Origin: Escherichia coli
GTDB lineage: Bacteria; Pseudomonadota; Gammaproteobacteria; Enterobacterales; Enterobacteriaceae
Length of the DNA: 64,000 nt
Assembly (NCBI RefSeq): GCF_044324875.1
Contig: NZ_CP172185.1
Direction: 5' to 3' (one strand)
Position 1 is the first letter of the stretch; each line of letters opens with the position of its first letter. The notes under the pieces were generated by a model. The model had not been told where the DNA came from. It saw nothing but the letters and a program-made list of their open reading frames with translations, and did no database searches. Positions 3,114 to 12,475 of the stretch are shown here, one piece after another. Both the position numbers and the translations under genes were made by a program.

Positions 3114-3893
3114 CTATGAAAAATGTTTAAGTCGATATTGAACCGGACTCATACCATCGAGTTTCTCTTTAATGCGATGGTGATTGTAGTATTCAATGTA
3201 ATCAATTATATCTTGCTTTAGATGATGTAACTTATTGTATTTATTTAGATAGTAACATTCTGATTTTAATGTACTAAAAAAGCTTTCCATTGCTGCATTA
3301 TCTAAGCAGTTACCACGTCGGGACATGCTTTGTGTTATGCCATTATCACTCAACCAACGTTGCCAACGAGGCATCTGATATTGCCACCCCTGATCACTAT
3401 GCAACAAGGGCTTATCGTCTTTATTGAGTTGTTCTACCGCATCTAATAGCATGCTCTTTACCATTGATGCTAATGGGCGCTCAGTAAGGTTATATGAGAC
3501 TATTTCTCCATTATACAGGTCCATGATTGGTGATAAATAGAGCTTCCTGCCATCGACCTTAAACTCAGTGACATCTGTTACCCACTTTTGATTTGGGCGG
3601 TCAGCATAAAATTGTCTCTTCAGTAAATTATTACAAGTTCGCCCCTGTTCTCCACGATAGGCACGGTACTTCTTGCGCCTGATAAGTGAGCTGATACCCA
3701 GTTCCTTCATTAACTTTCTGATGGTTTTACCATTAAGTAAAATGCCCTCGTTACGGCAGGCAAGTCTGATGCGTCGATAACCATAACGCCCTTTATGCTG
3801 ATGGTATATTCTCAATATTACTTGTTTAACAAGTTGATATGGATCTGGCGCATTAAGGCGTTTCACGTGATAGTAAAATGTACTACGTGGCAA
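3114..3893 (-). CDS. IS3-family transposase OrfB (DDE integrase core); probably expressed by frameshift from orfA
   Basis: 259 aa with …WVTDVTEF… and …HSDQGWQY… motifs typical of the IS3 DDE domain. Confidence 0.8.
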   Translation of the reverse strand: MPRSTFYYHVKRLNAPDPYQLVKQVILRIYHQHKGRYGYRRIRLACRNEGILLNGKTIRKLMKELGISSLIRRKKYRAYRGEQGRTCNNLLKRQFYADRPNQKWVTDVTEFKVDGRKLYLSPIMDLYNGEIVSYNLTERPLASMVKSMLLDAVEQLNKDDKPLLHSDQGWQYQMPRWQRWLSDNGITQSMSRRGNCLDNAAMESFFSTLKSECYYLNKYNKLHHLKQDIIDYIEYYNHHRIKEKLDGMSPVQYRLKHFS

Positions 3894-3952
3894 ATCAGCG
3901 ATAACCAGTAATTGTGATAATGGATGACATTGCCTTAACTCATTAATAATGA

Positions 3953-4453
3953 TTACTTTTTCTTTTGTTCCAATCGTAATTTTTCCTGAGCTAAGGCTTT
4001 CAGCTTTTTTAGATAAGCGTTCTCAACTCTCAGAAACTCAAGTTCTTCCCGTTCACTGATTGTCAGTTGTGTCGAACGATTTCGTTGATAAACAGCAGGA
4101 GTTTTCGGCCTCAAATCTTCCTTTTGTCCCTTCATCGAAAAATCAACCTCACTGTATTTTTTAATCCATTTGGATATGGTGTTAAAAGCAGGGATCCCAT
4201 ACTTCACTGCAGCTTCCCTTATAGAAAGAGAATTATCAATAACATCTCTGACCACATTCAATCTGAAGTTATCGTCATAACGTCTTTTTTGCCCAGTCAG
4301 TGTTTTTAATCCGTGCTTACGGTAAACATAAGCCCATTTCCTTACCGTGCTGGGGTCAATATTGTACATTTTTCCAACAGACTTCAAACTCAGCTCACCT
4401 TCCAGGTATTTTTCTGATACTTCCCTTTTGAATTCTAATGAAAATTTGCTCAT
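3953..4453 (-). CDS. IS3-family transposase OrfA (HTH)
   Basis: 166 aa, MSKFSLEFKREVSEKYLEGELSLKSVGKMYNIDPSTVRKW…, C-terminal leucine-zipper-like region. Confidence 0.8.
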   Translation of the reverse strand: MSKFSLEFKREVSEKYLEGELSLKSVGKMYNIDPSTVRKWAYVYRKHGLKTLTGQKRRYDDNFRLNVVRDVIDNSLSIREAAVKYGIPAFNTISKWIKKYSEVDFSMKGQKEDLRPKTPAVYQRNRSTQLTISEREELEFLRVENAYLKKLKALAQEKLRLEQKKK

Positions 4454-4559
4454 ACGCTCCTCAGTTACAGATCTGGTGTCTAACTATTGGGGCGCACTTC
4501 ATCAAACTGGTGGACGCCTGTTATGGAGCAAAAACATTATCCGCAGAACCCCGCAGATC

Positions 4560-4682
4560 ATTTTCAAATGAGTTAAACTTCAAATGGTTAAACTGGTTTT
4601 GCAACCAGGAGCCTCTGTTGCCCGTATTGCCCGGGAACACGATATCAATGATAACCTCCTGTTCAAATGGCTCAGACTCTGG
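4560..4682 (+). pseudogene. IS66-family orfA-like fragment
   Basis: One frame reads …GASVARIAREHDINDNLLFKWLRLWQNVR-stop, resembling the IS66 TnpA core; no start codon and no partner genes. Confidence 0.35.
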
Positions 4683-5548
4683 CAGAACGTAAGGTAAAGG
4701 GAGATGAAAAAGGCAATAGCAGAACTGAGTGACAGTGAAACCATTCTGGCGTACAGGGTTGGATGGTGAAACTGATAAAAAAACCCCTCTGAAAATTCTG
4801 TCAGAGGGGTGTAGTCAATAAGGGTGTCATATTCAACATGAAGATGTCTTCTGGGAATGTTTACATAGCAAATGCTTTCACTCCGGTAATTAATTTCCGT
4901 GATTAACTGCTTTCGATCAATAAAGGAATTGCAAAAGTGTGATCTTGTTCACGACATTGTGGATGATAATATGCCTGATGTCTGAATCCGGAAACAGTGA
5001 TCTGGCGGTTTCATGTGAAGTTGACGGATAAAAAATCCGCACGACCAGACAGACGTGCGGTTTACGAAATTCGTAACAAGAGGCTTTTCTACGGATCACG
5101 TGGTGCGTGCCACGTGAAATTTTTGTAGCGCAAAATGTGTGATGTGTAAATACAAGGAAGGAAAAAAGTTAAATCGGTGGAAGTCCATGCCTGCCACATG
5201 TATGTCTGCATTCCTCGTTTTGAACAGAATTCTCACCAGACATCGTGAATTTCTCATTCAATCATCAGAGATATTACCCAGGATTTTTATTGTTTTGTGA
5301 TAGCAGTACTTTAAATGTTCAGATGCTAAAATAAGCGCGCTTATTATAATTATAGTTATGATGTTTTATCTTTATGTATTTTAATGATTTTCTCGTCATT
5401 GCTTTTCTGCTGCTTAAATTGAGGGCGCATATTATACACAATAATATTCCTGGCATTATTAAATTAATAAAAGAGGATTCTTATCACTGTATTTTTGCTC
5501 CGCACTACCGTTCTGGCTGGTGAAGTAATAATACAGGAGAATAACAGA

Positions 5549-7096
5549 ATGCTTAAAAGACGTGATGCTTTTTTAAAGAAAAGCGCGCTGGCAGTGAGTG
5601 TGGCCCTGCTGCTCTCATCTCAGGCTCAGGCTCAGGATATTTTATTCGGACCGATTCAACCTGGCGAAGATAATAGCTTTCTTGTTGGAGATTCAGTAGC
5701 TGGCCGTTCGTCTGGTGACATAAGAAATGTATGGTTGGTGGGTGATAATTCTTTTTTATTAGACTCAAACAGGACTGTGCTTTTGGGGAATAATTCTGGT
5801 GTTGTGAGCTCTCCGGGAAGTGTGAGTCTGGGGCATGATGCACTTATTGCTGACTCTGAATGGGGGACTGTTGCAGGAAAAGAAGCGTCACTTATTTCTT
5901 CTCGTCAGAGCTCGGCAATTGGTGCGTTTTCATCTGTGCAGGATTCTACCAGTTCTGTAGCTCTGGGCCATGGCTCACAGGTGTCGGGAGAAAATAACGT
6001 GGTATCTGTTGGTGCCGGGCCTGAGGGATATGGAGAGAGTGTCAAAGGAGCACCGGAAACCCGCCGGATTATAAATGTGTCTGATGGTATCAATAACACA
6101 GATGCAGCGACGGTAGGGCAACTGAATGAACGATTTGATGATGCACAGGTCTTTTTGTTGCAGACGAATGAAAGAATTGACGAGACAGATAAACGTCTTT
6201 CAACAGTTCATGCTGAACTCAGCAGGGATATTATTGCAGGCACATCGGCAGCGGTGACGTATACAGATGTAACAGCGCTTGCACTTCAGGATGAGATAAA
6301 GGATGGGACGAACAAAGTACGTGATGAGTTGAAATCACAGGGAGACAGTCTGCGTGGTGAGATAGGCGGTGTATACAGAGATGCCCGTGCTCATACTGAC
6401 AGTCAGGTCACAGCAGTACGTGATGAACTGAAGGCAGAGGGAGACAGTCTGCGCGGTGAGATAGGCGGTGTATACAGAGATGCCCGTGCTCATACTGACA
6501 GTCAGGTTACAGCAGTACGTGATGAACTCAGCAGGGATATTATTGCAGGCACATCGGCAGCGGTGGCGTATACGGATGCATCTTCTCTTGCTCTTCAGGA
6601 TGAAATAAAAGAAAAAGCGGATGAAACAGTTCAGGTTTCCCGGGCTTATACAGATAAAAGTGTACGGGATGCCCGTAAAGAAGCGAAAAGCCAGGCAGAA
6701 CATCTCAGCGATGTGCTTGTGAAGAACAGGGCGCAGACGGATGCAGCAATAGCCTCAAATACAGCAGCGATAAGGAATAACAGTCATCGTCTGGATTTGA
6801 CGGAAGCCTGGCAGAAGATGGCGACAGAGAGAATGAATAATATGCAGGAGCAGATTAAAGAGAACCGGAAGGAGTTAAGGGAGAGTGCAGCCCAGAGCGC
6901 GGCACTGGCAGGTCTTTTCCAGCCATACAGTGTTGGAAAATTTAACGCGACAGCAGCCGTTGGTGGTTACCGTGATGAGCAGGCCATTGCGGTGGGCGTG
7001 GGCTACCGTTTCACAGAGAATGTGGCAGGAAAAGTTGCAGTTGCTGCAGGTGGGTCATCCGCATCGTGGAATGCTGGTGTGAATTTTGAGTTCTGA
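5549..7096 (+). CDS. Trimeric autotransporter adhesin (YadA-like C-terminal anchor) with internal repeats
   Basis: Signal peptide [28 protein letters not shown] after a GGAGA ribosome-binding site. Coiled-coil stalk with repeats. C-terminal membrane anchor …[19 protein letters not shown]…GVNFEF. The ORF track starts 18 codons upstream at 5495. Confidence 0.75.
6320..6517. repeat. Two near-identical 99-bp in-frame tandem repeats inside the adhesin gene
   Basis: GGAGACAGTCTGCG(T/C)GGTGAGATAGGCGGTGTATACAGAGATGCCCGTGCTCATACTGACAGTCAGGT… recurs with 99-bp period (encoding [30 protein letters not shown] twice). A second repeat pair (…[13 protein letters not shown]…LALQDEIK) brackets them. Confidence 0.85.
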
Positions 7097-7157
7097 CAGG
7101 TCAGGATTTAGATATCTGTCCCGGGGGGAGTCCCCCGGGATATAATGAGGTACAGAG

Positions 7158-7613
7158 ATGCTGGATATAATCCTGGCGACGAGAGATATTTATTTTGAAA
7201 AAGCCCTGCGAGAGATATTTGGAACCGTAAGCAGTCGAATCAGATATATAGAAGATGCCATATCAGACAGAAGAAGGGTGCAGTCAGGCAGGTCATTCAG
7301 ATATTATTTTGTATTCTGTGATGATGAGTATACAGATATTGTTCGTATTCTTTTTACCGGAGAGGCCTGCTGTATTCTGAATAAGTCGATGCTGAATCTG
7401 AGAGCGGCCGGAGGTGTGTTGACGCTGGAAGAGCGCAGAGCGGTACTGAACCGGTATTACAGAGGTTTAAGTATTGCGGAGATTACAGAAGAGACGGGGC
7501 AGAATGACAAGACGGTATACGGTCATCTTCGTCGTGCACTGCAGCGGTCTGGATTCCGGAAGGGGCGTTTTATAAAGGGGAGAGAAGCGGCGGGGGATTC
7601 AGGTGTTGAATAA
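7158..7613 (+). CDS. Small putative HTH regulator (LuxR / sigma-70 region-4-like C-terminus)
   Basis: 151 aa; C-terminal …LTLEERRAVLNRYYRGLSIAEITEETGQNDKTVYGHLRRAL… resembles a LuxR-type helix-turn-helix. Sits 60 bp downstream of the adhesin gene. Confidence 0.4.
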   Translation: MLDIILATRDIYFEKALREIFGTVSSRIRYIEDAISDRRRVQSGRSFRYYFVFCDDEYTDIVRILFTGEACCILNKSMLNLRAAGGVLTLEERRAVLNRYYRGLSIAEITEETGQNDKTVYGHLRRALQRSGFRKGRFIKGREAAGDSGVE

Positions 7614-7859
7614 TGTATCTTATATTGTGATATCGGTGCTGCTGCTGTTATTTTTTGTTGTATTTGTGACGAATGGTTAAGAATAAAACATGAGTTGGTG
7701 ATTATCAGGACAGGTTGCTTGTATATGAAGATAACAAAGGCGGCATTTATTTTTGCGCTGTCAGTGTGGAGTGTTGCTGTGATATGTCTTTTATTATTTG
7801 TACTGGTTGTTCTGGGATAGCCATAGTGAAATAAAAAGCTGTCTGAATTAAATTATTTT

Positions 7860-9170
7860 GCACACATGTTTTAATTCTGCACTGAATTCAGAATGGGTAA
7901 TCAGTGACCGTCCAGGCGGTCACCGAACTCGATAATAAAGCGGCTCATTGCCATTCGCCAGTCCTTCAACGGCATCGTCCATTTCTGGGACGCAGACTGG
8001 ATTGCCAGCCACACCACTTTTTTCACCGAGTCGTCTGTCGGGAACACTTTACGCTTTTTGATCGCATGGCGGATCACGCTGTTTAGCGACTCGATTGCAT
8101 TCGTCGTATAGATCACTTTGCGGATGTCCGTTGGATAAGCGAAGAACGTGGCAAGATTCGGCCAGTTAGCCTGCCAGCTTCGGCTTATCTGAGGATAGCG
8201 ACTGTCCCAGGCCGCAGCGAACGCTTCCAGTGCCTGCTGACCTGCCTCTTCCGTGGGAGCCTGATAAATCGCTTTCAGGTCGCGAGTGACGGCTTTGTAG
8301 TCCTTCCATGACACGAAGCGCAGGCTGTTGCGCACCATATGCACGATGCATAACTGGATGCGGGCCTTCGGATATACTGTGTTGATGGCATCCGGGAAGC
8401 CTTTCAGGCCATCCACACAGGCGATGAGGATATCGTTCAGACCGCGGTTTTTCAGTTCAGTCAGCACATTGAGCCAGAACTTCGCCCCTTCATTTTCGGC
8501 CAGCCACATACCCAGCAGTTCCTTCTGACCTTCGATATTGATGCCCAGTGCCAGGAACACCGATTTGTTGATGACGCGACTGTCCTGCCGAACTTTCAGG
8601 ACGATACAGTCAAGATAAACAATGGGGTAAACAGCATCCAGTGGTCTGTTTTGCCATTCTACAACCTGCTCCATCACGGCATCGGTGACCTTTGATATCA
8701 GTGCCGGTGAAACATCTGCGTCATACAGTTCTTTGAACGCAGTAGCTATCTCACGGGTGGTCATCCCTTTGGCATACAACGAGAGGATCTGGTTATCCAT
8801 CCCGGTAATACGGGTCTGATTTTTCTTTACCAGTTGTGGTTCGAAGGTACCGTCACGATCGCGCGGAGTACGCAGTTCCAGTGGACCGTCGCCTGTGATA
8901 ACGGTCTTTGTGGAATAACCGTTGCGGGAGTTAGCTCCTGGTCTGGACTGATTTTTCTCATACCCAAGATGGTGTGTCATCTCTGCATTGAGAGCGGCTT
9001 CAACGCTGAGCTTTTTCAGCAGCCGATCAAACTGACTGAGGTCTTCAGGGGTTTTGAGGTTTTTGGCCAGTTCGTTAGCCAGAGCCTGTAACTGTTTTTC
9101 GTCCATAAATTAACCTTCATTTGATGCTGGATTGAACATATCAAAATCAGGCAATTACACAAATCTATGT
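7860..9170 (-). mobile_element. IS256-family insertion sequence (boundaries approximate)
   Basis: Single 401-aa transposase ORF with about 50-60 bp flanks; terminal repeats not confidently delimited by eye. Confidence 0.6.
7901..9106 (-). CDS. IS256-family transposase
   Basis: 401 aa, MDEKQLQALANELAKNLKTPEDL… with …YLDCIVLKVRQ… and …CIVHMVRNSL… motifs typical of IS256 (mutator-type) transposases. Confidence 0.85.
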   Translation of the reverse strand: MDEKQLQALANELAKNLKTPEDLSQFDRLLKKLSVEAALNAEMTHHLGYEKNQSRPGANSRNGYSTKTVITGDGPLELRTPRDRDGTFEPQLVKKNQTRITGMDNQILSLYAKGMTTREIATAFKELYDADVSPALISKVTDAVMEQVVEWQNRPLDAVYPIVYLDCIVLKVRQDSRVINKSVFLALGINIEGQKELLGMWLAENEGAKFWLNVLTELKNRGLNDILIACVDGLKGFPDAINTVYPKARIQLCIVHMVRNSLRFVSWKDYKAVTRDLKAIYQAPTEEAGQQALEAFAAAWDSRYPQISRSWQANWPNLATFFAYPTDIRKVIYTTNAIESLNSVIRHAIKKRKVFPTDDSVKKVVWLAIQSASQKWTMPLKDWRMAMSRFIIEFGDRLDGH

Positions 9171-9277: not shown

Positions 9278-10051
9278 TCATAATTGCCATTTTAAATGCA
9301 GGCCTAATTGCAGCCCATTGAAATTATGGTTCGGTGTTTTATACCAAACTTTACCTGCCGTCAGCCCGAGATTAAGTTGCTCAGTCAGCGGTTGAATACG
9401 TTGTAAACTGACGCTCTTCATGCTGCCGTATCGTGTTTCTGGCGTCCAGTCATAGGTGTAAGCACCTGTTCCGCGGCTTAGCCATAGTTGTGTATAACCA
9501 GCACCGCGCGGGTCCTTCAGACGCACGGAAATCATATTGCTGTAACTACCAGCTGCATCGCTGGAGTCATAATGGGTATAGCGGTAGCTGGTGATCACCG
9601 GGCCAGTATAGAGAGATACGCCGCCTTGCCAGGCATCGACTTCGACATCATCGTAATATTTAGTGTAGCGATAACCGGTCGTGAAAAGCGTTTTTGGCAA
9701 CAGGGCCAGGTTAATATCCTGACGAAAATCCTGACGGGCAAAGACCGGCGTATTATCCGCAAAGGCAATACCCGTTCGGGTTGTCAGCCAGTTATTCCAT
9801 TTGTACCAGACTGCACCCTGGCCGCGAGTGGCATTGAAATGTTCAGTTTCATAATCACGACGCCCCTGGGAAAGATTAAAAAGCAGCGTTGCGTTTTCAA
9901 CTTTTGCCACCAGTTCAGCATAAGCTAAATTACGGTTGCCATGGTCGCCAGAATAATCGGTAAAATCGTAGCCCGTGGTAATGGAAGTTAACCCGGCATA
10001 AGCGGGCAATGCACTAAAAAAAAACGGCATTAATAACGTATGCTTTATCAT
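9278..10051 (-). CDS. yaiO: YaiO-family outer-membrane beta-barrel protein
   Basis: 257 aa, signal peptide, alternating aromatic/Tyr-rich strands, C-terminal …GLHLKWQL; closely resembles E. coli YaiO as recalled. Confidence 0.7.
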   Translation of the reverse strand: MIKHTLLMPFFFSALPAYAGLTSITTGYDFTDYSGDHGNRNLAYAELVAKVENATLLFNLSQGRRDYETEHFNATRGQGAVWYKWNNWLTTRTGIAFADNTPVFARQDFRQDINLALLPKTLFTTGYRYTKYYDDVEVDAWQGGVSLYTGPVITSYRYTHYDSSDAAGSYSNMISVRLKDPRGAGYTQLWLSRGTGAYTYDWTPETRYGSMKSVSLQRIQPLTEQLNLGLTAGKVWYKTPNHNFNGLQLGLHLKWQL

Positions 10052-10052
10052 T

Positions 10053-10763
10053 TTAATCTCCTGTACGGATAAGTTCTTGTCGGAGTGAGTAAGTTCCGGT
10101 AGGTAAATTACGTTCTACAATCACGCGCGGGCCAAGTTGCGTGTTCGGGGAAATAATTCGCCCGGGCAAAATAATAACCTGTACGCCAAGGCGTGAACGC
10201 TGCCCGATATAACAACCTAATTTATCGCATCCGGTAGCGATAATTCCATCTGGCGTTCGAACAGACACGGGCTGTTCATCCAGACGATGATTACTGGTAC
10301 GTACTTGTGCGCCCAGATATGCCTGGTTTGCAACTACCGAGTCGGCAACAAAGCATTGCGGACCAATCGTTGCTTCCGTTTCAATAACCGCATTTTTAAT
10401 TTCGGTGGCAAAACCAATTTTTACGCCATTGCTGATTATTGTGCCAGGACGAATAAACGCATAATTACCTATCAGGCAGTTTGCGCCAATCACTACCGGC
10501 CCCTGAATAACGGCACCGTGGCAAATACGGGTATTCGCGCCGATAACAACTTCACCTGCACTTTCATCAATAATTACCTGGTCTGCAATCTGAGTATTTT
10601 TCTCTTTAACATTAAGCTCCAGATAGTTTTTCAGTTTCTGTGACAGAAGGTTGGGAATAAGCGGTTGACGTTTCCACCAGTGCGGAATAGCGGGTGGGTT
10701 TGTCGCGCTGAGGTTCGCGTCCAGTAAAAAAGGCAATAAGTCCATAAATAATCCAGATGGCAT
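10053..10763 (-). CDS. yaiX: Hexapeptide-repeat (left-handed beta-helix) acyltransferase, YaiX-like; true start probably downstream of 10763
   Basis: Repeated [LIV]-G-x-x-x-x-I hexapeptide pattern (…VIGANTRICHGAVIQGPVVIGANCLIGNYAFIRPGTIISNGVKIG…). The ORF as drawn overlaps the upstream gene by about 150 nt. Confidence 0.65.
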   Translation of the reverse strand: MPSGLFMDLLPFLLDANLSATNPPAIPHWWKRQPLIPNLLSQKLKNYLELNVKEKNTQIADQVIIDESAGEVVIGANTRICHGAVIQGPVVIGANCLIGNYAFIRPGTIISNGVKIGFATEIKNAVIETEATIGPQCFVADSVVANQAYLGAQVRTSNHRLDEQPVSVRTPDGIIATGCDKLGCYIGQRSRLGVQVIILPGRIISPNTQLGPRVIVERNLPTGTYSLRQELIRTGD

Positions 10764-11808
10764 AAGCTAATAATACATACACAACGGAAAGCGGAGCTAA
10801 AGGTACCAACAACCAGCAACGATGAAACCAGGCGCTAAAAGTACCAATAACACAAACTATGCCGACCCAGATAAGCGGGAACATTGCCATCACCACACCA
10901 TGTGGCCCGGTGGTGATGAATTCATTAAACCAGGTAGTGAGATAAATCCCAACGCCATAAAGCACAACCAGCAGCATAGGAAATATACTGAAGATACCGA
11001 AGCGGCTAAATAAAAGTCTTTTATGCAGGCGCATACAGACCGCGTAGCCCACAATCCAGCGCCGCCAGCGACGCCACTCCTCACGAAGGCTGTTGCATTC
11101 CTGTGGGTATACGATACAGCGATTCACCTGCCGAATACGGTAACCATTGGCGACCAATGTCCAGGTGAGATCGAGATCTTCAACTTTGGTACGGTCCGAA
11201 AAACCGAATTTACGCAGCACATCGGTACGGAACATCCCGCAGGCACCGCTGATAATAAACGGTGCACCACCCAGGAACTGCTGTAGCGTACGCTTCATAG
11301 CAATCATCGGCAACTTTACGGTGGCGCGGATATGTGGCAGCAGACCTGCCCCTTTTAACGCGGTGGAGGGAATTCCGCCAACGGCATCAGCGCCGCGCTC
11401 AATTTCTGCCAGCATATAGCCCATTCCATCACTGTCAGGTGGAACGAAAGTATCTGCATCACTTAAAAATACTTGATCACACGTGGCGTATTTTATTCCA
11501 TGCATTAGTGCGCCACCTTTACCGGTGTTTTTTTGCGTGACGGCAACAAAGCGGTCGCCCCATTTGCGTTTGACTTCCGCCATGACCGCTTCGGTATTGT
11601 CCGTGGAGCCGTCGTTAACGCAAATTACCCGGCAAAAATAAGGGTTACGCAGCAGATTATCCAGTGACTGCGCCAGACACGGGCCTTCGTTATAAGCAGG
11701 TATAATGACGTCAATACAGCCTTTCTTTTGACTGGGTTTACGTCTTAGCGTACTTAAAAACCATAGCAACATTACTATGGACATACAGATAAATATCCAA
11801 GTCTTCAT
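10612..11808 (-). CDS. yaiP: Family-2 glycosyltransferase (YaiP-like), membrane-anchored
   Basis: 398 aa; N-terminal TM, then …VIIPAYNEGPCLAQSL…VNDGSTDNT… (GT-A fold DxD-type motifs) and C-terminal TM helices. Confidence 0.75.
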   Translation of the reverse strand: MKTWIFICMSIVMLLWFLSTLRRKPSQKKGCIDVIIPAYNEGPCLAQSLDNLLRNPYFCRVICVNDGSTDNTEAVMAEVKRKWGDRFVAVTQKNTGKGGALMHGIKYATCDQVFLSDADTFVPPDSDGMGYMLAEIERGADAVGGIPSTALKGAGLLPHIRATVKLPMIAMKRTLQQFLGGAPFIISGACGMFRTDVLRKFGFSDRTKVEDLDLTWTLVANGYRIRQVNRCIVYPQECNSLREEWRRWRRWIVGYAVCMRLHKRLLFSRFGIFSIFPMLLVVLYGVGIYLTTWFNEFITTGPHGVVMAMFPLIWVGIVCVIGTFSAWFHRCWLLVPLAPLSVVYVLLAYAIWIIYGLIAFFTGREPQRDKPTRYSALVETSTAYSQPSVTETEKLSGA

Positions 11809-11821
11809 TTATGAAATCCAG

Positions 11822-12475
11822 TCATAACACCATTTTGTATATAATAAAACCTTCGCACATAGCGCAGTTTGCCTGTTGCCCTCTGAAACTGGCCTGACTA
11901 TGTAAATATTCATGTTGCATATATTTACGTTGACTCTGGCTTTTATGCTCTTTCAATGCCATTAATTTTTTATTAAATTCATTCTGCTCTATTGCTTCAA
12001 AAGCATGAGGGGAAAATGAAATCCATGCACTTGGTGTTTCATATCCCAGTATCTGAGGAATATAACGACAGGCAACCATTGATGCCTGATAAACAGCAAT
12101 ATGATCCTGATGCCTGTCAGAATTATTCATGGTATAAACTCTCGTAATTTCGACATCCTGAGGGATATCATTAGCAATTATATTTTCCAGGGAAGATATC
12201 ATGTCTCTTATCTGTAAATAAAGACGGGTATCCTCAAAATTAAGATGAATTGACTTGTCACATCCCAGTATTTTTAATGCTTTCTGTGACTCTTTATGAC
12301 GGTCAGTATCTTTTCCCCCACAACAACCGGGGGTCATAACTACCGCGATAGTATATATATTTCTGGCAGAAAAAGTTGCAAGAGATGCACCACATCCTAA
12401 TTCTATGTCATCAGGATGTGCACCTATTGCCAGTACACCTGTTCTCTTTCCTGAATATGTGATAGAATTTAACAA
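11822..12475 (-). CDS. yaiS: PIG-L/LmbE-family deacetylase (YaiS-like)
   Basis: 217 aa with …AHPDDIELGCG… and …HQDH… zinc-binding signature of LmbE-type N-acetylglucosaminyl deacetylases. Confidence 0.75.
   Translation of the reverse strand: MLNSITYSGKRTGVLAIGAHPDDIELGCGASLATFSARNIYTIAVVMTPGCCGGKDTDRHKESQKALKILGCDKSIHLNFEDTRLYLQIRDMISSLENIIANDIPQDVEITRVYTMNNSDRHQDHIAVYQASMVACRYIPQILGYETPSAWISFSPHAFEAIEQNEFNKKLMALKEHKSQSQRKYMQHEYLHSQASFRGQQANCAMCEGFIIYKMVL

Follow-up and report, generated by a model that had tools for sequence, protein, structure and literature searches.

Within a stretch of 64,000 nt from Escherichia coli (GCF_044324875.1, contig NZ_CP172185.1; hereafter the window), which sequence searches identified as chromosomal DNA, the gene at 5549-7096 on the plus strand is very probably best explained as part of a cassette encoding an Eib-related trimeric autotransporter adhesin (TAA) whose coiled-coil stalk varies in length as a result of recombination between nested repeats. 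A sequence-only reading of the same DNA had described this gene as a TAA with 99-bp tandem repeats forming a length-variation hotspot, and both the observation and its interpretation turned out to be essentially right.

The coding sequence starts with the ATG at 5549, is preceded by a ribosome-binding site (AGGAG, 5535-5539) and ends with the stop codon at 7096, comprising 515 aa plus stop, which is also the length of the RefSeq coding sequence at the homologous locus of TUM9803. Judged from its sequence, it is an intact gene for a type Vc autotransporter, i.e., a TAA, whose passenger is read as consisting of head, neck and coiled-coil stalk modules, followed by the four-strand barrel anchor typical of TAAs. 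The identity assigned earlier was borne out by Pfam matches to anchor and neck, by the match to the YadA anchor structure 2lme and by the similarity of head and neck to EibD (BLASTP). Precisely, a Sec-type signal peptide of 28 aa (5549-5632) was recognized by eye, with a basic n-region (KRR), a hydrophobic core and cleavage between AQA and QD. The cleavage region is encoded by a hexanucleotide repeat, (CTCAGG)x3 at 5619-5636, which was reported by Tandem Repeats Finder (TRF) and codes for (AQ)n; here alleles vary by one or two AQ dipeptides (515/517/519, 482/484 and 546/548/550 aa), which constitutes a second, smaller in-frame length polymorphism within the gene. Next follows the head domain (5633-6064, aa 29-172), predicted to form a left-handed beta-roll like those of YadA and EibD, whereby aa 91-224 of head and neck match EibD 211-346 with ~32% identity (E 5e-10) and head/neck fragments of SadA match aa 125-203 in a sequence search of the PDB. 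The head passes via a neck connector (6065-6130, aa 173-194; Pfam PF05662, E 2.9e-5) into the alpha-helical coiled-coil stalk (6131-6916, aa 195-456, ~260 aa) and ends in the YadA-type beta-barrel anchor (6917-7093, aa 457-515; Pfam PF03895 YadA_anchor, E 3.5e-16), for which the PDB sequence search returned 2lme with E 2.1e-17. The C-terminal 121 aa (6731-7093, aa 395-515), which unite an Eib-like membrane-proximal coiled coil with the anchor, are identical in 16 out of 16 aligned alleles. The NCBIfam YadA model NF033478 covers aa 109-514 (E 5.8e-20), its score of 71.7 bits being far under the curated cut-off of 750. An AlphaFold2 (AF2) model of the monomer, built from an alignment of 16 sequences and used for secondary structure alone, showed short beta-strands every ~7 residues at aa 31-154, with a predicted local distance difference test (pLDDT) score of 62-82 over ~aa 41-140, and helices at aa 2-24 (the signal peptide), 186-359 and 370-454, which fits a lollipop layout despite the low confidence of the model.

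The stalk contains two layers of repeats. TRF identified a single array with a 99-bp period (6316-6528, 2.2 copies, 93% matches, zero indels, in frame), which comprises unit a (6316-6414) and unit b (6415-6513), each of 99 nt and 33 aa, and a partial third unit (6514-6528, VRDEL) that merges into the second copy of an outer direct repeat. Units a and b differ at 7 of 99 nt (93% identity), with a longest identical run of 53 nt, and encode proteins that agree in 31 of 33 residues (VRDELKSQ vs VRDELKAE); for a 99-nt repeat of this identity, a chance origin is far exceeded. The tandem units are nested between the two copies of the outer repeat (6198-6303 and 6507-6612, 106 nt each), which are the same at 91 of 106 nt (86%), share an identical core of 43 nt and encode ...(T/A)YTD...LALQDEIK. 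The sequence-only reading had called the 99-bp repeats perfect and placed them at 6320-6517; their existence, period and reading frame stand, whereas their identity is 93% and the bounds were ~4 nt off, and the outer duplicated block it had noticed at about 6213 and 6527 was confirmed. Along the stalk, YxD motifs locate to aa 238, 276, 309, 341 and 367, and the hydrophobic periodicity peaks at 3.66-3.68 residues, i.e., ~11/3, with a power of 71 at 3.667 vs 0.4 at 3.5. The stalk is read as made of diverged YxD-containing modules, of which the 99-bp unit would be the youngest layer. With a period of ~11/3, the 33-aa unit corresponds to three hendecads or nine helical turns, so that units may be gained or lost without breaking the core register, and each unit would be expected to extend the rigid stalk by ~5 nm (at ~0.15 nm per residue) with this register kept.

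A protein search yielded 1522 homologues at E <= 0.001, the best 120 of which were examined by name and found to be almost all from E. coli and to be called either 'YadA-like family protein' or 'immunoglobulin-binding protein'. Counting the 33-aa core in 87 full-length sequences revealed proteins with one (480-484 aa), two (513-519 aa) and three units (546-550 aa) at the site, each class being found on both of two very different head alleles; in a tally over the best 120 of the 1522 homologues, about 140, 300 and 60 contigs carry one, two and three units respectively. The series is extended by strain 135 (locus L022), which encodes a protein of 581 aa with four units, by strain ECCNB12-2 (L002), in which five tandem units stand behind an alternative neck (555 aa), and by strain NRZ14408 (L018), whose 412-aa protein possesses no unit and a single, hybrid block and falls short of the window allele by exactly 103 aa. 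A comparison of repeat copy number across isolates, as proposed earlier, thus gave a range of 0 to 5 units among homologues and fetched loci. Variation is also seen in front of the stalk, as the population contains at least three head alleles and two types of neck: the second neck variant is GVKDSDAATKGQM, and in the 419-421-aa proteins of BEN2908 type (L004, L019, L020) the same neck-b and stalk follow a third head allele (HKTLTESSTGIIWIDNGTQ...), which is unrelated to the others.

The origin of these arrays can be traced by means of unit haplotypes, which were defined by eight variable positions, unit a being GTATCTCC and unit b ACGGGCCT. Two-unit arrays are a,b on both head backgrounds, and three-unit arrays are a, ACGGGCCC, b, the middle unit beginning as b (5') and finishing as a (3'), which is the outcome expected if b pairs out of register with a and an unequal crossover falls inside their identical tract of 53 nt. 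The reciprocal product, a at the 5' and b at the 3' end, is found in the single-unit allele of L009 (GTATCTCT); further single-unit haplotypes are pure a, ACGGGTCT and ACGGGTCC, and the four-unit array of strain 135 reads a, b/a, b, c. At the level of the outer repeat, the lone block in the 412-aa allele has all single-nucleotide polymorphisms of block 1 on the 5' side and all of those of block 2 on the 3' side of the 43-nt identical tract. By their sequence, the chimeric units and the hybrid block are the direct trace of gains and losses that the repeats have mediated at both nested levels, and with homologues of 0-5 copies and junctions marked in this manner, the earlier proposal of a length-variation hotspot is upheld. 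Considering that at least four single-unit haplotypes, four- and five-unit arrays and the 412-aa block hybrid exist, several independent events are indicated; at the same time, haplotypes are few and common to different head types, which shows that allelic exchange spreads the arrays and means that the rate of change may be modest.

The natural alleles show that unequal homologous recombination (or replication slippage) in the 53-nt core adds or removes whole units, resulting in 1, 2, 3 or 4 copies at the site and 5 in another scaffold, and that recombination in the 43-nt core of the outer repeat removes everything between its copies, resulting in the 412-aa allele. In addition, heads of at least three and necks of two types are shuffled onto the same stalks. 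Added units would be expected to alter the reach of the head through O-antigen or capsule as well as the exposed epitopes, and stalk length may in this way affect binding or immune recognition, as supposed in the sequence-only reading. The protein would be expected to act in adhesion, autoaggregation and/or resistance to serum, by analogy to the remaining short TAAs of E. coli, with immunoglobulin (Ig) binding as a further candidate function. Concerted evolution of paralogues was considered as well and is not supported. Matching unit numbers were seen for four or five genome pairs of the protein table; where second copies were fetched, they did not agree with the first (515 vs 412, 513 vs 421, 513 vs 419 and 581 vs 372 aa, the last one truncated).

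When phage records were searched, the Eib proteins of the ECOR-9 prophages were obtained as best matches. The last 118 aa of the TAA (aa 398-515) are 57% identical to both EibA and EibD, the beta-roll head and the neck align to EibD at ~32%, the size class is similar (392-511 aa for Eib vs 412-581 aa for this family), the order ORF-191, hairpin, TAA, hairpin, ORF-15x appears to be shared, and several paralogues per genome are present, as reported for eib (PMC12525524). In contrast, the stalk N-terminal to ~aa 398 is unrelated, since the alignment to EibD degenerates there, leaving no visible similarity across the Ig-binding stalk segments including the saddle, which aligns to a gap, and EibA and EibD contain neither the 33-aa tandem unit nor the LSRDIIAG blocks. 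Consistently, the EibD stalk fragment 2xzr matched the TAA with E 0.23 only, and 2xqh, likewise EibD, was not matched by sequence in the PDB search. Within aa 398-422, 6 of 25 residues are the same as in EibD (D, N, T, I, N, S), and given the heptad-like spacing of these residues most of them are taken as core positions, meaning that the exposed residues would differ. A further difference is that the window cassette resides in a chromosomal island, whereas eib genes reside in prophages. The two settings meet in L008, where an allele of 484 aa has a homologue of ORF-191 on one side (59% identity to ORF-191D of P-EibD) and DinI/integrase, at the end of a prophage, on the other, which is the eib slot of a lambdoid prophage. 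Positions 4690-4809 and 4871-5548 of the window match the spacer between ORF-191 and the TAA gene of this prophage. The TAA gene, the helix-turn-helix (HTH) gene downstream of it and the hairpins appear to be an eib-type moron cassette of a lambdoid prophage with a different passenger, now located in a chromosomal island ridden with insertion sequences (IS). Compared with the prophage layout, the window cassette possesses an ORF-191 stub, IS flanks and a weak match between ORF-151, the HTH gene, and ORF-156 (E 2e-4 and 3e-4). Islands with such genes have been auto-annotated as containing 'eibA' or 'ibr', in reports without a study of the genes themselves (PMC7371111, PMC11537424).

The cassette begins with a conserved non-coding leader on the plus strand (4502-5548), which was found with 92-99% identity upstream of the TAA gene in five other loci; ~690 nt of it are conserved at all loci examined, the final ~150 nt before the ATG being invariant, and its GC content is ~33% at 5150-5600. 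The leader includes the remnant 3' end of a prophage tail-fibre-assembly gene of ORF-191 type (4690-4809), a terminator-like hairpin with T-run (5096-5117), which probably ends the upstream transcription unit, and a weak sigma-70-like match (5318-5347). A patch of ~100 nt (~5308-5410), which overlaps this sole promoter-like match, occurs in two sharply different forms across loci and could represent a promoter or regulatory allele. Downstream of the TAA gene, a GC-rich intergenic hairpin is found on the plus strand (7117-7142; 11-bp stem, no T-run; centroid fold of -23.2 kcal/mol, z -2.0), at a position equivalent to that of the annotated stem-loop which in eib genes precedes ORF-156. The hairpin is followed by ORF-151 (7158-7613, plus strand), which encodes 151 aa with an HTH of the sigma-70 region-4 type at aa 87-130 (Pfam Sigma70_r4_2, E 4e-7); the small HTH gene noted 60 bp downstream of the adhesin is hence present, with an exact gap of 61 nt. 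ORF-151 matches ORF-156D with 22% identity (BLASTP, E 2e-4) and phrog_6585 with a whole-protein E of 3.3e-4 and no lone stretch past the cut-off, ORF-156D itself reaching 4e-99, while a PDB search returned weak sigma region-4 matches only. It is probably a distant ORF-156 homologue and is a putative regulator, and the HTH protein may regulate the cassette and with it the TAA gene. ORF-151 lies directly 3' of the TAA gene in every match listed that covers >=80% of the probe, and 163 genomes have such a match. In several genomes (loci L009, L010 and L012 at ~4650-5770, and matches H26, H27 and H39), an element of the IS4/IS5 family resides exactly between the TAA and the HTH gene, at or near the hairpin. 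A scan of 3800-8000 with Rfam gave sub-threshold chance matches only, and PADLOC reported nothing relevant apart from LmuB, a coiled-coil artefact.

Comparison with the adhesins Eib, Saa and UpaG, as the sequence-only reading had recommended, identified the protein as being neither Saa nor UpaG nor YadA, while the C-terminal module and, apparently, the cassette layout are shared with Eib. Saa likewise is a short E. coli TAA (~460-535 aa), which differs in being encoded on plasmid pO113, in having another repeat unit and in being 24.9% identical across TAA aa 121-490 (tblastn, E 1e-7; NC_007365.1 and other saa plasmids). Derivation from Saa or from a plasmid was rejected, as megablast against plasmids gave one partial match of 650 bp and tblastn ~25% identity to Saa. 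Paton and colleagues reportedly described in 2001 natural Saa variants with differing numbers of a ~37-aa in-frame repeat, located in the C-terminal half, and this likeness would make Saa the closest functional parallel to the length polymorphism. YadA of Yersinia resembles the TAA in its lollipop head, its neck, a right-handed or non-heptad stalk with YxD-type motifs and its anchor, but is ~23% identical and borne on the pYV plasmid. UpaG and EhaG are also chromosomal E. coli TAAs with passenger variation between lineages (PMC8281228), yet are multi-head fibres of ~1600-1800 aa, and none was present among the best 120 of the 1522 homologues. The eYadA protein of the avian pathogenic E. coli (APEC) strain TW-XM, a TAA which is likewise annotated 'YadA family' (Vet Res 2026, PMC12955052), was rejected as a counterpart, as it is encoded by a separate gene of 338 aa at the cueR-ybbJ locus with a local match of 23% (E 0.008); being a different gene, its phenotypes are not transferable to the window TAA. 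A review from 2025 names UpaG/EhaG, Eib and Saa as the only E. coli TAAs (PMC12525524), to which the present family would add a fourth group, Eib-related at the anchor and with a stalk of its own.

Among 5426 complete E. coli genomes, 183 (~3%) possess the 3' part of the cassette (TAA 3' end and HTH gene), in each case with >=99% identity. Carriers are mostly poultry isolates and extraintestinal pathogenic E. coli (ExPEC), 33 of 60 evenly sampled rows being from chicken, poultry or other birds, and include BEN2908, IMT5155, SMS-3-5 and F11. Many genomes possess two or more copies in different islands. The island of ECCNB12-2 covers 89% of window positions 1-25000 at 99.7% identity, yet contains the differently built TAA gene with five units. 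In the window, the cassette of TAA and HTH gene is bracketed by an IS3-family element (orfA/orfB, 3114-4453, minus strand) and by the transposase of IS1414, of the IS256 family (7901-9106, minus strand), and a transposase fragment is also among the flanks of the TAA gene. Elsewhere it is flanked by fragments of IS1, ISL3 or IS256, or by a transketolase/phosphotransferase system (PTS) operon and a gene for a c-type lysozyme inhibitor, and the loci of BEN2908 type (L004, L019, L020) always lie between the split transketolase/PTS operon and this inhibitor gene. An assignment to the tkt1 pathogenicity island was rejected, as the transketolase genes upstream of the BEN2908 copy belong to a different, split transketolase/PTS operon; the tkt1 literature does not mention the TAA.

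Several points weigh against the reading as an Eib-related adhesin cassette whose stalk changes in length by recombination. The upstream region is AT-rich and contains one weak promoter-like match, fewer than in shuffled sequence; the stalk periodicity is only moderately significant, the observed power being attained by 42 of 2000 shuffles; the AF2 monomer is poor (mean pLDDT 52), and Foldseek with this model against the PDB gave no match at E <= 0.001, the top one being EibD 2xqh with E 1.3. ORF-151 shows only weak homology (22% identity) with ORF-156, in several genomes the TAA gene is truncated or IS elements lie between it and the HTH gene, and the family is uncharacterised in the literature and outside the list of E. 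coli TAAs given in the 2025 review (PMC12525524). Finally, the arrays comprise a handful of distinct haplotypes which recur across head backgrounds, so that independent events may be few and their rate low. In its strong form, this last point leads to the assumption that the length classes are a few old and stable alleles, spread by horizontal transfer and allelic replacement, with the repeat being a historical scar instead of an active hotspot. Such an origin would explain why the arrays a,b and a,b/a,b occur in genes of both head type I and head type II; it would fit flanks that are >=99% identical across genomes, consistent with the recent spread of few cassettes, and units of 93% identity with a maximum tract of 53 nt, for which a modest recombination rate is predicted. 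It is nevertheless considered rather unlikely, given at least four single-unit haplotypes (pure a, an a/b chimera, ACGGGTCT and ACGGGTCC), the four- and five-unit arrays, the 412-aa hybrid and the 5-unit, differently built gene which ECCNB12-2 carries in an island matching 89% of window positions 1-25000 at 99.7% identity.

A second alternative concerns function, as the protein might act like Eib, i.e., mainly in non-immune binding of IgG Fc or IgA and in serum resistance instead of adhesion, whereby the repeats would raise the number of sites for Ig or set their spacing. In EibD, IgG binding was reportedly mapped by Leo and colleagues (2011) to the C-terminal left-handed coiled coil, and the 57% identity of the C-terminal 118 aa to EibA and EibD, the apparently shared cassette layout and prophage slot and the older database names of close homologues ('immunoglobulin-binding protein', an annotation, not a test) point in the same direction. 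However, the similarity stops N-terminal to ~aa 398 with the EibD saddle opposite a gap, 2xzr is matched at E 0.23 only, the 6 of 25 shared residues at aa 398-422 are mostly taken as core so that exposed ones would differ, the 33-aa unit is without counterpart in EibA and EibD, and the name was probably transferred from the anchor; altogether, Eib function is held to be unlikely. Even more doubtful, and indeed very unlikely, is that the gene is a leftover from a defective prophage, either silent or in decay, which an IS-rich island carries along passively, with length variation as neutral debris. IS3, IS1414 and a transposase fragment do flank the gene, the tail-fibre-assembly gene is reduced to a stub, the leader is AT-rich with promoter matches fewer than in shuffled sequence, and truncated or IS-interrupted copies are common; against this, well over 100 genomes have an unbroken frame that includes signal peptide and anchor, no variation is seen in the C-terminal 121 aa, conservation of the leader reaches as far as the ATG, every change mediated by the repeats involves whole 33-aa units and preserves the register of the coiled coil, and two or more gene copies are kept per genome.

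Reading the locus as a length-polymorphic, Eib-related adhesin cassette, it may further be asked what the variation would serve. In a far-reaching version, which is regarded as quite unlikely, leader, TAA gene, hairpin and ORF-151 would form a self-contained, prophage-derived module, of which ExPEC and APEC maintain at least two copies each and which acts in them as a combinatorial surface-variation system under its own HTH regulator, tuning stalk length to capsule or O-antigen and varying antigenicity. Since the 5' leaders and the 3' ends are near-identical among copies, recombination among copies and among the nested repeats would generate such variation. If true, at least three heads, two necks and 0-5 stalk units would be combined, by a logic like that of Bartonella vomp or Neisseria opa/pil variation; to our knowledge, no combinatorial surface variation has been described for E. 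coli TAAs. Repeat-driven variation of stalk length as such is well precedented in TAAs and fairly ordinary for the class. With reference APEC strains such as BEN2908 and IMT5155 among its carriers, the family may plausibly contribute to colonisation or serum resistance and could be a target for vaccines or typing, uses that head swapping and the stalk-length polymorphism (412-581 aa) would complicate. The natural series of 0-5 units with clean chimeric junctions would be usable for relating stalk length to TAA function behind capsule or O-antigen.

Other parts of the window contain further features of the island. Next past IS1414, a cluster on the minus strand (9278-12475) comprises, following the annotation of the closest genome, a YaiO-family outer-membrane beta-barrel, an acetyltransferase, a glycosyltransferase and a PIG-L deacetylase, and may be a module for surface-polysaccharide modification. 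About 20 kb from the TAA gene, an autotransporter of 1274 aa is encoded on the plus strand (27908-31732), annotated as 'S6 family peptidase' (SPATE-like) in the closest genome, of which NCBIfam recognises the beta-barrel domain only; the eib gene of P-EibA also lies near a SPATE-like gene, eaaA. Two sets of open reading frames of equal size and spacing (332 aa and 548 aa) at 32705-35123 and 61233-63651 on the minus strand, 28,528 nt apart, resemble two copies of an IS66-family element. Finally, the region 39458-48093, with a PhoX-family gene, a phosphoethanolamine-transferase/sulfatase-like gene (43668-45170) and a P4-type integrase (46828-48093, minus strand), is arranged much like the end next to the integrase in tRNA-Phe islands, SE-PAI among them, although ARAGORN detected no tRNA gene in the window.

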